NCBI GenBank assembly: GCA_027460535.1
Contig: JAPZAR010000032.1
Span: 1-9,102, forward strand
DNA from: Candidatus Methanoperedens sp.
GTDB taxonomy: Archaea > Halobacteriota > Methanosarcinia > Methanosarcinales > Methanoperedenaceae
Direction of reading: 5' to 3'
Length of the DNA stretch: 9,102 nt
In this document: positions 4,337 through 9,102 of the stretch, one piece after another
How positions within the stretch are numbered: the stretch's first letter is position 1
Layout: the number at the start of each line of letters is the position of its first letter
Program-made: the position numbers and the translations under genes
The notes under the pieces: model-generated
Databases searched by the model: none
What the model was told of the DNA's origin: nothing
The model's input: the letters and a program-made list of their open reading frames with translations, nothing else

Positions 4337-4354
4337 CCAGCCCCCGCATGTCCT

Positions 4355-4399
4355 AAAGCACCCTATTTATATATCCCGCGTTATATCTAAGAGCAGAAC
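4355..4399 (+). promoter_or_regulatory. wecB promoter block, repeat copy 1 (TATA box TTTATATA at 4366-4373)
   Basis: The 45-nt block AAAGCACCCTATTTATATATCCCGCGTTATATCTAAGAGCAGAAC lies directly before the ATG at 4400. The TATA box begins 34 nt upstream of the ATG, which implies a very short or absent leader. There is one mismatch to copies 3 and 4. Confidence 0.6.
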
Positions 4400-4519
4400 A
4401 TGAAGCTCATCTCCATAGTGGGCGCCCGTCCCCAGTTCATCAAGTGCGCGCCGCTGTCCCGGGAACTGCGGAGGGAGCATAAGGAGATACCGATGCACAC
4501 GGGGCAATACTGCGACTGA
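4400..4519 (+). pseudogene. wecB: UDP-GlcNAc 2-epimerase (wecB-like) 5' stub, 39 codons then stop
   Basis: The translation is [39 protein letters not shown]. The first ~60 nt are identical to copy 4 (8670 onward). Similarity to the full gene ends at about 4516. Confidence 0.8.
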
Positions 4520-4553
4520 AGGAAACACCGTTCTAATCAGGCTGTGGCATGTC

Positions 4554-4802
4554 ATGTGGTTGAAAGAGATCATCTGGATTGAAAAGTTCAAATCAAAGAT
4601 AGAGGTGAAGCATAATGTTACCGGTGAAGAAGTCGAAGAGGCCTTGCTCTCAAATGGTTTATTTCGCCGTGCACAGCGAGGTAGAGTGAAAGGAGAAGAT
4701 ATTTATGGTGCATATGGTCGAACTCATTCAGGGCGGTATCTTTTTATAGTATTCATTTATAAATCACCTATGATAGCACTCATAATATCTGCAAGAATAT
4801 GA
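4554..4802 (+). CDS. brnT: BrnT-like (DUF497) ribonuclease toxin, C-terminus apparently frameshifted
   Basis: This is an 82-aa ORF. IIWIEKFKSKIEVKHNVTGEEVEEAL...GRTHSGRYLFIVFIYKSPMIALIISARI fits the DUF497/BrnT pattern as I remember it (W.e.K....KH.V..eE.e ... GR.l.vv ... iISAR). It is followed by a BrnA-like gene. The expected tail (..ER..Y) is encoded in the -1 frame at 4799-4843. Confidence 0.72.
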   Translation: MWLKEIIWIEKFKSKIEVKHNVTGEEVEEALLSNGLFRRAQRGRVKGEDIYGAYGRTHSGRYLFIVFIYKSPMIALIISARI

Positions 4803-4826
4803 CAGTTCAAGAGCGGAAATACTACA

Positions 4827-5090
4827 ATGCCAAAAAAAGTTAAGAAAATACCGGAAGAGTTTAAAACATACGAAGAAGCTGCAGAGTTCTGGGATACCCA
4901 TAACAGCGCAGACTATCTGGATGAATTTGAAGATGTGGAAATTAAGGTCGACATTCAGAAAAGACATTATCTAATAGAATTGGATTCCAGAACAGCAGAA
5001 TTGCTTCAGGAATTGGCGAGGAAAAAAGGAGTTTCTGTCAATTATCTTGCAAATGAATTGCTACAGGGTCAACTTGCAGAAGCGGAATAA
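4827..5090 (+). CDS. brnA: BrnA-like antitoxin (N-terminal FWDTH block, C-terminal ribbon-helix-helix-like region)
   Basis: This is an 87-aa ORF. EEAAEFWDTHNSADYLDE is the block typical of BrnA-type antitoxins. The C-terminal IELDSRTAELLQELARKKGVSVNYLANELL looks RHH/CopG-like. The gene lies immediately downstream of brnT. Confidence 0.75.
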   Translation: MPKKVKKIPEEFKTYEEAAEFWDTHNSADYLDEFEDVEIKVDIQKRHYLIELDSRTAELLQELARKKGVSVNYLANELLQGQLAEAE

Positions 5091-5102
5091 CCTTAATATA
5101 TT

Positions 5103-5125
5103 TATCCAATTGGATATGGTTTTTT
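5103..5125 (+). terminator. Palindrome plus oligo-T tract after brnA
   Basis: A perfect 14-nt palindrome, TATCCAATTGGATA (5103-5116), is followed by TGG and TTTTTT (5120-5125). It lies 13 nt after the brnA stop. Oligo-T tracts are the usual archaeal termination signal. Confidence 0.45.
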
Positions 5126-5225
5126 ATGATTTTTGAATTTATGTGCGATGGGGACGACAATTTACTGCAGATGAACGCTCCGAGTCGCGCCTCGGGAGGC
5201 GCAACCACAAGCCTCCGCATGTTCA

Positions 5226-5270
5226 AAAGCGCCCTATTTATATATCCCGCGTTATATCTAAAAGCAGAAC
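5226..5270 (+). promoter_or_regulatory. wecB promoter block, repeat copy 2 (TATA 5237-5244)
   Basis: The block AAAGCGCCCTATTTATATATCCCGCGTTATATCTAAAAGCAGAAC has one mismatch to copies 3 and 4. The shared upstream extension GCAACCACAAGCCTCCGCATGTTCA (5201 onward) matches 8600 onward. Confidence 0.55.
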
Positions 5271-7507: not shown

Positions 7508-7643
7508 GCGAGATGAAATTTCAAAGCAGGGAATCTTATATATTAATAGATTCAAGATGTCAATGGAACATTAAAATGATCTTTAGATCAATGGATTCAA
7601 TATATTTCAAATTCTGATACTGAAGAAACAAGGTCTATAGTAT

Positions 7644-7898
7644 ATGAAAATAATATTTACAGATCATGCTAAGGTCAAGTTCAAAATCTTAAAACAACAT
7701 GGATTTGAAATAAATGAAAAACAAGTTAAAAATATCATAGAAAATCCCGATACTAAGACCAAGGGGAGAAAAGACCGGCTTATTGTTCAAGGTCTGGTTG
7801 ATGATATTCATGTGATAAGAGTTATATGTGAAATTGAGAGTAATAATATTAAAGTTATTACATTTTATCCTACCAGGAGAGAAAGATATGAAAATTAG
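7644..7898 (+). CDS. DUF4258-like putative toxin
   Basis: This is an 84-aa ORF. MKIIFTDHAKVKFKILKQHGFEINEKQVKNIIENP...IHVIRVICEIESNNIKVITFYPTRRE fits the DUF4258 pattern as I remember it (..t.HA..r...rgI....v..vi.nP ... viTvy). It overlaps the downstream DUF2283-like gene by 11 nt. A TATA-like CTTATATATTAAT lies about 90 nt upstream. Confidence 0.62.
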   Translation: MKIIFTDHAKVKFKILKQHGFEINEKQVKNIIENPDTKTKGRKDRLIVQGLVDDIHVIRVICEIESNNIKVITFYPTRRERYEN

Positions 7899-8106
7899 TT
7901 ATAATCGTGAACAAGATATTCTCATGTATGAAGTAAGTGATGAACCTATAGACTATGCTGAGGAAGTTGGACCCATTATAGTTCATTTCAGCAAAAAGGG
8001 AAAACCTGTACTTATGGAGATACTGGATGCAAGCGAATTTATTGCAGTGACAACCAAGATTACCATGCAATCCAGGAATGAAAATCCTGTTGAAGCTCTA
8101 TCATAA
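7888..8106 (+). CDS. DUF2283-like putative antitoxin
   Basis: MKISYNREQDILMYEVSDEPIDYAEEVGPIIVHFSKKGKPVLMEILDASEFI matches the DUF2283 pattern (M.i.YD.e.D.LyI.l......e.E....iil.....G..vGiEIldAS). I prefer the ATG at 7888, which is preceded by AGGAGAGAAAG, over the track start at 7828. The track start would lie inside the toxin gene. Confidence 0.75.
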   Translation: MKISYNREQDILMYEVSDEPIDYAEEVGPIIVHFSKKGKPVLMEILDASEFIAVTTKITMQSRNENPVEALS

Positions 8107-8175
8107 TCTTGTCACAGTTATCTTTCGGGTGATGGCTATAATGCAAGGTAGCTGTGAAGCGTCAAAACTGAAAGA

Positions 8176-8330
8176 GAAAATGGCTGATTCAGGCAAAGCA
8201 CTGGGAGAGGCATGTGATCTGATAGTGCCGTGCATTAAGCTGATGCAAAACACGTAATGGTTGAGGACGCTGGAGGGGTGGAATGTGCTGGTTGGGGGTG
8301 GATAAAAGCAAGATTGTGGGGGCTGGGTTC
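8176..8330 (+). pseudogene. wecB: Degenerate 3' remnant of another wecB-like copy (possibly extending to ~8400)
   Basis: This stretch aligns by eye with 7255-7400 of copy 3. The remnant reads DSGKALGEACDLIVPCIKLMQNT*WLRTLEG-WNVLVGG-DKSKI against [44 protein letters not shown]. It has an in-frame TAA (8255-8257) and at least two frame shifts. Confidence 0.6.
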
Positions 8331-8452
8331 AACATATGACATAACTTATTACAGTTCGGCGCACCGATACGAAAACTGGGCAATCTCCTGGCGATAGAAA
8401 TAAACAAACCGCAGATGAAGGCGCCCAGAGTCACGCCTCTGGAGGGCGTGTC

Positions 8453-8475
8453 CACGCATGGCTGCGCCATGCGTG
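8453..8475. repeat. Perfect 10-bp-stem palindrome (CACGCATGGC-TGC-GCCATGCGTG) inside a GC-rich spacer
   Basis: Read directly from the sequence. A second hairpin, CACGCC-TCTGGAG-GGCGTG, lies at 8432-8450. The function of both is unknown. Confidence 0.5.
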
Positions 8476-8624
8476 TGCGCGGAGTCGAGAACCCGCAGGG
8501 TTTCGGCATGATGAACGCAGATTTGCTGACAGGGATTAGGATATATTTGATTACATGAACTATATATTTCCATAGTTGTGGCGCCCTGTGAGAACCGGGG
8601 CAACCACCAGCCTCCGCATGTCCA

Positions 8625-8669
8625 AAAGCGCCCTATTTATATATCCCGCGTTATATCTAAGAGCAGAAC
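8625..8669 (+). promoter_or_regulatory. wecB promoter block, repeat copy 4 (TATA 8636-8643)
   Basis: The block AAAGCGCCCTATTTATATATCCCGCGTTATATCTAAGAGCAGAAC lies directly upstream of the only uninterrupted epimerase reading frame. Confidence 0.65.
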
Positions 8670-9102
8670 ATGAAGCTCATCTCCATAGTGGGCGCCCGTC
8701 CCCAGTTCATCAAGTGCGCGCCGCTGTCAAGAGAACTGCGAAAAGAACATGAGGAAATTTTGGTTCACACGGGGCAGCACTACGACCATGATATGTCAGA
8801 GATATTTTTTGAGGAGCTTAATATCCCGAAGCCTGATTACAATCTGGGCATTGGCTCAGGCAGCCATGGCGAGCAGACAGGGAAGATGCTTATTGAAATA
8901 GAAAAGGTAATGATAAAGGAAAAGCCGGATATCGTTCTGGTCTACGGCGACACCAACTCCACCCTTGCAGGCGCGCTGGCTGCTGCGAAGCTCCATATAA
9001 GGGTGGCGCATGTGGAAGCTGGATTGCGCAGTTTTGACAGGAGCATGCCCGAGGAAATCAACAGGGTGCTGACAGACCATATATCTGACCTGTTGTTTTG
9101 CC
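8670..9102 (+). CDS. wecB: UDP-N-acetylglucosamine 2-epimerase (non-hydrolysing, WecB/MnaA-like), N-terminal 144 codons; continues past the right window edge
   Basis: This gene is not in the ORF track because there is no stop in the window. My manual translation is [144 protein letters not shown]. It shows the classical epimerase N-terminal landmarks (GxRPxx[30 protein letters not shown]). Confidence 0.85.

Follow-up and report, generated by a model that had tools for sequence, protein, structure and literature searches.

Toxin-antitoxin modules set between repeated wecB ends at the hypervariable edge of a glycan gene cluster in Candidatus Methanoperedens

The wecB repeats and their toxin-antitoxin spacers

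The DNA analysed here (the window, 9,102 nt of contig JAPZAR010000032.1, assembly GCA_027460535.1) comes from the genome of a methane-oxidising archaeon, Candidatus Methanoperedens, and the subject of this account, confined to positions 4337-9102, is a series of whole and partial copies of wecB (UDP-GlcNAc 2-epimerase; Epimerase_2 family), each standing behind a copy of the same promoter block and separated from the next by a small toxin-antitoxin (TA) gene pair. The locus is real and forms the hypervariable edge of a cell-surface glycan gene cluster. An earlier note on this DNA had reported four direct repeats with ATGs at 4400, 5271, 6633 and 8670, and these are borne out by a direct-repeat family of four copies (4327-4420, 5198-5291, 6560-6653 and 8597-8690) whose ATGs are spaced by 871, 1362 and 2037 nt. 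The TATA block that the note had seen in all of them is equally well supported, with 38-40 of the 40 positions from -40 to -1 before the ATG identical among the four copies, and a TATA-like TTTATATA is found at -34 to -27 of each ATG, that is, 27 nt before it; this distance fits archaeal leaderless spacing, in which the TATA box precedes by about 25-30 nt a transcription start at or close to the ATG, and from it we infer a TATA box and a leaderless transcript. The wecB coding sequence that follows extends over about 117 nt in copy 1, about 182 nt in copy 2 and at least 433 nt in copy 4, as the note had it to within a few nucleotides, whereas copy 3, which it took to be partial, comprises the whole gene. 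The features of the array are given below in their order along the window, and loci from other contigs are referred to by L numbers.

4361..4399, + strand: promoter block copy 1, with TTTATATA at 4366-4373
4400..4519, + strand: wecB 5' stub 1, 39 codons and a stop (amino acids 1-39 by tblastn), its first 59 nt the same as in copy 4
4554..4802, + strand: BrnT-like toxin gene of module 1 (PF04365, E 1.5e-6; 28.8 bits, below the cut-off of 34.5)
4827..5090, + strand: CopG/BrnA antitoxin gene of module 1 (PF12441, E 5.8e-12), from a family with Methanoperedens paralogues
5164..5231, + strand: GC-rich element ahead of a promoter block, common to 8404-8428, 8575-8630 and L018 1296-1342
5232..5270, + strand: promoter block copy 2, with the 38-40/40 conservation given above
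5271..5452, + strand: wecB 5' stub 2, about 60 codons, decayed
5509..5558, + strand: second promoter-like block, TTTAAATATA ... ATG
5703..6128, + strand: MNT nucleotidyltransferase antitoxin gene of module 2 (PF18765/PF01909)
6125..6568, + strand: HepT (HEPN/DUF86) toxin gene of module 2 (PF01934, E 8e-31)
6594..6632, + strand: promoter block copy 3, beginning 25 nt past the HepT stop
6633..7507, + strand: wecB copy 3, two open reading frames (ORFs) here owing to a 193-nt gap (Epimerase_2 profile 7-130 and 198-346)
7644..7898, + strand: DUF4258 / PBECR3-like putative toxin gene of module 3 (24.2 bits, below the cut-off of 25)
7888..8106, + strand: DUF2283 putative antitoxin gene of module 3 (PF10049, E 3e-10)
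8177..8397, + strand: decayed wecB 3' remnant, about amino acids 270-350, with internal stops
8398..8630, + strand: intergenic hairpin element ahead of copy 4, its last ~60 nt common to the regions upstream of copy 2 and of the full genes in L008 and L173
8631..8669, + strand: promoter block copy 4, 38-40/40 conservation
8670..9102, + strand: wecB copy 4, ending with the contig

The copies differ in their state of preservation. Although the coding part of stub 2 has lost 1 nt near codon 8 and duplicated 15 nt in tandem at 5392-5421, its promoter block is preserved, and conservation of this block in decaying stubs may be read as a sign of promoter constraint. Copy 3 is an intact 355-aa ORF in two other contigs (L001 and L003) and copy 4 is cut by the contig end, so that the note cannot be followed in calling the most downstream copy the only uninterrupted one. 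Copies 3 and 4 (6570-7065 and 8607-9102) are 92% identical over about 480 nt, with blocks of 100% identity alternating with blocks of 74-84%, which argues that recombination between copies continues; this mosaic, together with an exact match of 98 nt between copy 1 (4361-4458) and copy 4 (8631-8728), looks like the signature of gene conversion or of mosaic ancestry. Two features had been overlooked in the note, the promoter-like block at 5509-5558 and the wecB 3' remnant at 8177-8397, and since the latter directly repeats 7250-7480 of copy 3, module 3 is bracketed by wecB 3' ends and not by 5' ends. For annotation, short ORFs labelled Epimerase_2 in these genomes should be taken as stubs, not genes, and similar caution applies to the disruption of copy 3 in this contig, which is not seen in the two others.

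The cargo domains were assigned by Pfam profile search against the Pfam cut-offs. The matches uphold the claim of one two-gene TA pair of a different family per spacer, with CopG, MNT, HepT and DUF2283 above the cut-offs and BrnT and DUF4258 below them. The two genes of a pair are separated by a gap of 24 nt in module 1 and overlap by 4 nt in module 2 and by 11 nt in module 3, and as adjacent, small and co-oriented genes from toxin and antitoxin families all three pairs have the makings of type II TA modules. GC content is about 30% over the DUF4258/DUF2283 module (7501-8000) against 45-52% in the flanking wecB copies, which suggests a foreign origin of module 3. The BrnT of module 1 is 47% identical to that of L008. 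No TATA-like sequence of its own lies ahead of module 1, between stub 1 and BrnT, and this module may thus rely on the duplicated promoter; AT-rich, TATA-like boxes precede the ATGs of modules 2 and 3 by about 25-40 nt.

Four other contigs match the window, namely L001 (JAPZAT010000053.1, GCA_027460495.1), with 100% identity over 640-7066 and, separately, over 7066-9102, the ENA k141 contigs L002 and L003, and the Logan contig L004. They come from at least two further assemblies and agree with the array at 99.98-100% identity over 1.3-8.7 kb. In a scan of species-representative genomes, the nearest wecB genes all belong to Methanoperedens.

Two kinds of sequence upstream of the genes recur beyond the array. 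A GC-rich hairpin element (AAACCGCAGATGA...CCGAGTCGCGCCTCGG...) precedes promoter blocks 2 and 4, is present at L008 6875-6960 and also fronts another glycan gene in M. nitroreducens; among the loci fetched it is not a common repeat, and its reading as a mobile repeat was rejected. The promoter-like block at 5509-5558 has a counterpart with 86% identity at L174 4565-4614, immediately before an MNT gene of an unrelated locus, and in L018 (1428-1475) and L008 (1342-1394) an NAD-epimerase promoter matches it at 81%. This block of about 50 nt (TCTTTAAATATA...ACATAAAAAG...ATG) fronts three unrelated genes, the local MNT/HepT, the MNT/HepT of another locus and an NAD-dependent sugar epimerase, which suggests sharing or capture of promoter modules between genes. 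Its reading as a captured NAD-epimerase stub was withdrawn because the same block fronts the MNT gene at the unrelated locus, and its origin is ambiguous. In M. nitroreducens the MNT/HepT homologue has a Cas12f1/TnpB-like gene some 3.5 kb away (L174 8939-10279), which probably has nothing to do with the array. Elsewhere in the window, the minus strand of 1-4192 carries two tandem paralogous multihaem cytochrome genes, which are direct DNA repeats with a period of 2504-2519 nt and 70-84% identity; of these, the complete gene (1682-4192) encodes 836 aa with 18 CxxCH motifs, an MtrC/MtrF-like domain is found in the upstream paralogue, and the two are probably extracellular electron-transfer proteins typical of Methanoperedens.

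Empty and filled wecB sites in related genomes

The comparison with orthologous loci that the note had proposed brings out sites without cargo: in three Methanoperedens loci (L010, L011 and L018) a single wecB stands directly behind wecC (UDP-sugar dehydrogenase), with overlapping stop and ATG, and L009, again with a single wecB, has a second type of native junction. Among the loci compared, none shows an empty site in the window's own species. At four other loci (L005, L007 and L008, from three other species, and L033) a stub of 23-32 codons sits in the native position behind wecC and is followed by cargo and then by a full wecB. Such empty and stub-filled sites support the proposal of serial insertion at the wecB 5' end by segments bringing a replacement promoter and 5' end. 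The filled sites are composed as follows.

L005: 31-codon stub, methyltransferase-like gene, full wecB
L007: 32-codon stub, two small ORFs without family match, full wecB
L008: 23-codon stub, BrnT/CopG pair, full wecB
L033 (Methanolinea): wecC, stub (27 codons, 97% identity to the gene), MazE/ParE, wecB
L103: wecC, VapBC, stub, DUF2283, stub, MazE/ParE, wecB
L097: stubs of 152 and 103 codons, wecC fragments, and PIN, VapB, HicAB and ParE genes
L085: wecB, MNT/HEPN, 3' fragment
L015 and L099: wecB, two small ORFs, 3' fragment
L005 and L006: 3' fragments behind an acylphosphatase-like gene
L170 (sister genome GCA_027460565.1, 46-kb contig): full wecB, UPF0175/DUF3368, 3' fragment, HEPN pair, 3' fragment, CopG, MazE-like/PIN, promoter and 5' stub (identical to the gene over 83 nt), flippase gene

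The layout therefore recurs in other Methanoperedens species and in Methanolinea, and it does so at both the 5' and the 3' end of the gene. L170 and L033 hold the likeliest candidates for recent events. By blastn self-comparison, partial wecB duplications 0.25-6 kb apart are present in 10 of 160 wecB-centred loci, nine of which are archaeal or lie on unlabelled metagenome contigs (L085, L086, L097 and L103), the tenth (L012) being binned as Geobacteraceae.

The origin of the downstream copies can be approached at L007 and L008, where the full wecB is preceded by the promoter block of the window (32-35 of 40 positions identical) and, in L008, also by about 60 nt of the window's upstream element. 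Since a local tandem duplication would have copied the end of wecC, the inserted segment appears to have brought the cargo, the promoter and probably the first part of wecB, and we take simple local tandem duplication to be excluded for these two loci. Over the first 72 nt the full copies of L007 and L008 differ from each other at 6 sites and each from its own stub at 9-11, distances with too few informative sites to be more than suggestive as to a native or imported origin of the stubs.

Turnover of the cargo is visible in L173 (GCA_027460425.1), a differently filled allele of the window's locus. Module 1 and stub 2 have counterparts there with 93% nucleotide identity, the slot taken by MNT/HepT in the window holds a divergent third BrnT/CopG pair, and downstream of the full gene there is a promoter and stub fused to a wecC 3' remnant. 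At 2850-3200 of this allele a 116-aa ORF joins a wecB 5' stub (about 25 codons) to the C-terminal remnant of wecC, directly ahead of a second epimerase paralogue with 54% identity to wecB, a mosaic joint that shows illegitimate recombination among genes of the glycan cluster. Fragments of wecC take part in the duplications of L097 as well as in those of L173. The L097 repeats (1103-2216/7270-8387 and 4088-4652/6513-7082, 89-94% identity) take in wecC fragments, VapB/PIN genes and the 5' part of wecB and enclose HicAB and ParE cargo; the duplicated target, of about 1-2 kb, crosses the wecC-wecB junction.

Several regularities hold across the arrays. There is roughly one duplication per cargo unit, with three of each in the window; direct repeats of 69-480 nt flank every cargo in the window and in L005-L008, L033, L085, L097, L103 and L170; and the inserts measure 0.6-1.3 kb, their cargo mostly co-oriented with wecB. 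By our own tally, recognised TA domains are present in about 14 of about 22 cargo intervals, and for the small ORF pairs of L005, L007, L015 and L170 NCBIfam returned no names save for a weak MazE match. Between arrays, identity within a TA protein family reaches only 35-48%, which argues for independent acquisitions. The 5' stubs end at codons 23, 27, 28, 31, 32, 34, 39, 44, 45, 49, ~60, 103 and 152, and the 3' fragments start at codons ~200-212, 267-271 and 297; breakpoints as variable as these exclude a single attachment site, while all fragments include the most nucleotide-conserved stretches of wecB. The polarity described in the note, with old truncated copies upstream and a fresh intact gene downstream, is contradicted by the intact state of copy 3 elsewhere, by the 3' fragments around TA cargo in the window (8177-8397), L005, L006, L085 and L170, and by L170 and L173, in which a promoter and 5' stub lie downstream of the full gene.

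As the note had stated, the window contains neither a recombinase nor terminal inverted repeats. Integrase and transposase domains are absent from the window and from four related arrays with 8-21 kb of context (L007, L170 and L173 among them), and no integrase was found in any of the roughly 12 arrays examined. The window has no tRNA or Rfam family. Exact-pattern scans did not find the promoter block in JGI metagenome contigs or in viral contigs, and the DUF4258 protein had no match in the viral contig collection.

Proposed insertion with long target duplication and its rivals

[quoted passage not shown] The anatomy of the arrays, its recurrence, the empty sites of relatives, the variable breakpoints and the lack of recombinases are observed; the way the joints form, the retention of inserts through addiction and the use of the duplicated promoters are proposals. 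Small type II TA modules would have entered serially at the two most conserved ends of the gene, each entry duplicating the target over a long and variable stretch, either promoter and 5' end or 3' end, and each leaving a stub while one intact wecB always survives. One joint would be made through homology in conserved wecB and the other would be illegitimate, with no recombinase involved; candidate routes are template switching during replication and homology-facilitated illegitimate recombination that involves either imported DNA or another copy of the chromosome. Selection would then keep only those duplications that span a gene end and so leave an intact, promoter-equipped wecB. Recombination between the flanking direct repeats would normally delete an insert quickly, and because an insert between repeats is unstable whereas an addiction module resists deletion, the bias towards TA cargo would be explained. 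The presumably leaderless promoter in the dead stubs probably transcribes co-oriented cargo, at least module 1, and the repeats would allow later gene conversion and turnover of cargo.

The layout is not without a known relative, since insertion with long target duplication has been described for restriction-modification genes (Nobusato et al. 2000, Gene 259:99; Furuta, Abe and Kobayashi 2010, PMC2853133). The empty-site screen of the latter study retained no restriction-modification system from archaea, and a 2013 review of restriction-modification and other TA systems ascribes this mode of insertion to restriction-modification systems only. The screen of Furuta et al. 2010 called for direct repeats >30 bp, a repeat that is single at the empty site, an insert <20 kb without mobility genes, and restriction-modification cargo. 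The wecB arrays agree with it in repeat length, in the empty-site alignment and in insert size and lack of mobility genes, and depart from it in cargo; since the latter consists of type II TA pairs, they are analogous to the long-target-duplication class and not members of it as originally defined. Like the restriction-modification insertions, they set a small addiction-type module between direct repeats that are long and vary in length from tens to hundreds of bp, the repeat is single-copy in the empty-site relative, and transposase and integrase are absent. Unlike them, the cargo is made up of type II TA pairs with RNase-type toxins and the hosts are archaea, the events are iterated at one gene to yield arrays, and the duplication always spans a gene end, with the promoter included at the 5' end. 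As this cargo is not DNA-cutting, the double-strand-break rationale put forward for restriction-modification genes does not carry over. In Microcystis aeruginosa a ParE/ParD-like pair lies between two identical 152-bp direct repeats beside a host gene (Klemencic et al. 2021, PMC7935541). Here too a type II TA pair is fenced by direct repeats, but this is a single bacterial case with intergenic repeats that contain inverted repeats, without an array and without an empty-site comparison. No description of iterated, gene-end-anchored archaeal TA arrays was found in the literature searched in full text, the coverage of which was incomplete.

For the proposed joining step, homology-facilitated illegitimate recombination, reportedly described by de Vries and Wackernagel in 2002 in naturally transformable bacteria, is said to use one homologous anchor and one illegitimate joint. 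The likeness to the wecB arrays lies in the integration of foreign DNA without a dedicated recombinase. To our knowledge, however, it has been described with deletion in the recipient rather than duplication, and we know of no demonstration in archaea.

A number of points weigh against insertion with long target duplication. Neither a donor sequence nor an excision product was found, and no donor configuration for modules 1 and 2 was identified among the loci of their nearest CopG and HepT homologues. TA paralogues 70-91% identical to these modules do occur at such unrelated loci without wecB flanks or long flanking repeats, a circumstance that the note had counted against its own interpretation; flanking repeats are thus not a general property of these TA families, and the behaviour belongs to the wecB context and not to the families. 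The repeats within an array are often only 80-90% identical, which means that they are old or else never were genuine duplications in situ. Some cargo is not of TA type, including methyltransferase-like and acylphosphatase-like genes (L005, L006) and several ORF pairs without a family match. The promoter and stub placed downstream of the full gene in L170 and L173 require additional deletions or rearrangements. The surveyed loci were picked through wecB, so that its standing as a target preferred over other genes is only presumptive. Finally, post-segregational killing may be weak in polyploid archaea.

A bolder version, which we consider rather improbable, would make the conserved wecB ends the portable recombination arms of a recombinase-free cassette system, a functional analogue of the integron that operates across archaeal orders. 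A unit of repeat and TA module would loop out as a circle by homologous recombination of neighbouring repeats and, after transfer, re-enter a genome with a similar wecB by a single crossover; this would recreate the stub, the cargo and an intact gene with its promoter, and the TA module would block the reversal. Chromosomal integrons are linear arrays of small co-oriented cassettes with a recurring sequence between them, many of which carry TA genes thought to stabilise the array. Unlike integrons, the wecB arrays have no IntI or attC-like palindromes at unit borders, their recurring sequence is a promoter with a fragment of a housekeeping gene, and each unit has its own promoter copy. The resemblance to an integron or a CRISPR array that the note had remarked on is therefore superficial only. 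An integron as such was rejected, since no IntI-type recombinase domain was found in the window ORFs or in the related arrays, and the only candidates for attC were four weak inverted pairs, none at unit borders, with no dedicated attC model run.

A first rival account, which is rather unlikely, holds that wecB was duplicated several times in tandem by unequal crossing-over, that most copies decayed to stubs, and that unrelated TA modules landed later in dead DNA where insertion carries no cost. Copies 3 and 4, as two apparently complete paralogues, would fit this, and so would the segmental repeats of L097, which over 1118 nt at 89% identity extend across wecC fragments, a PIN gene and the 5' part of wecB, the second epimerase paralogues carried by L033 and L173, and the clear decay of the stubs. 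Against it, the downstream full copies of L007 and L008 stand behind a foreign promoter block and not behind the 3' end of wecC, independent landings would not lead one to expect nearly one stub per cargo or the dominance of TA genes, and the same pattern is found at the wecB 3' end. Tandem duplication thus explains copies 3 and 4 and parts of L097, and does not explain the foreign promoter of L007 and L008 or the cargo bias.

It is considerably less probable that the arrays are relics of site-specific integrative elements, provirus- or plasmid-like, which used an attachment site at the wecB 5' end, carried a replacement promoter and 5' end, and have since lost all but their addictive TA genes. 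The flanks, with truncated copies of the target at one end and a restored gene at the opposite one, do resemble those of tandem islands at attachment sites, and the composition of module 3 is foreign-looking at about 30% GC. Each of the remaining observations is at odds with such elements: no integrase was found in the roughly 12 arrays examined, the cargo amounts to merely 0.6-1.3 kb, the stub ends range from codon 23 to codon 152 with no common core, duplications occur at the 3' end too, and neither the promoter block nor the DUF4258 protein has a match among viral contigs. A site-specific element at a gene-borne attachment site was rejected on the same grounds, there being no integrase and no fixed crossover.

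Other known classes were set aside as well. A CRISPR array would have short repeats of about 25-50 nt and non-coding spacers of similar size, and against it stand the spacing of 871, 1362 and 2037 nt, the protein-coding spacers and the lack of an Rfam match; for an insertion sequence, transposon or miniature inverted-repeat element (MITE), no terminal inverted repeats flank any unit; and for an island linked to a tRNA or RNA gene, the window offers no tRNA or Rfam family.

We give very little credence to an assembly artefact, in which strain variants or collapsed repeats had been stitched into a false tandem array, since the joints between stub and cargo unite unrelated sequence that k-mer overlap is unable to create, the exact repeats among copies 1-3 are at most 98 nt, the four other contigs agree with the array, and analogous arrays are present on contigs of 31-46 kb from other genomes. 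Misassembly of copies 1-3 is unlikely: their longest exact repeats measure 30-98 nt, below the k of 141 taken from the k141_ names of L002 and L003. Only the link between copies 3 and 4 and the 193-nt gap remain at real risk of misassembly. Exact sharing of at least 139 nt exists only between these two copies, and their link is supported by two contigs in addition to that long exact repeat. The 193 nt present in L001 (6428-6620) and L003 are absent from copy 3 of the window at 7066|7067, and the gap starts at the very repeat coordinate at which the window (9102, copy 4) and L002 (7212) end. Given this coincidence of the breakpoint with contig ends and the long exact repeat of copies 3 and 4, the gap would be either a minor allele that branches the assembly graph or an assembler error, and the microhomology at its edges, 1 nt, favours neither a genuine deletion nor an artefact.

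What the arrays may mean for toxin-antitoxin genes

The observation made from the window has been confirmed with corrections, and the interpretation first attached to it is partly supported. To the question of how chromosomal TA modules travel without a plasmid, phage or transposon to carry them, the wecB loci contribute a footprint that recurs and can be searched for genome-wide: every inserted module comes with a long duplication of a conserved gene end, and no recombinase is at hand. If insertion with long target duplication is the correct reading, a process so far known chiefly from restriction-modification genes of bacteria would also act on TA modules and in archaea, addiction would be tied to the persistence of otherwise unstable duplications, and the TA-rich hotspots at the edges of surface-glycan clusters would find an explanation. 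The recurrence of the layout in other archaeal genomes points to recombinase-free insertion and locking-in of TA genes.

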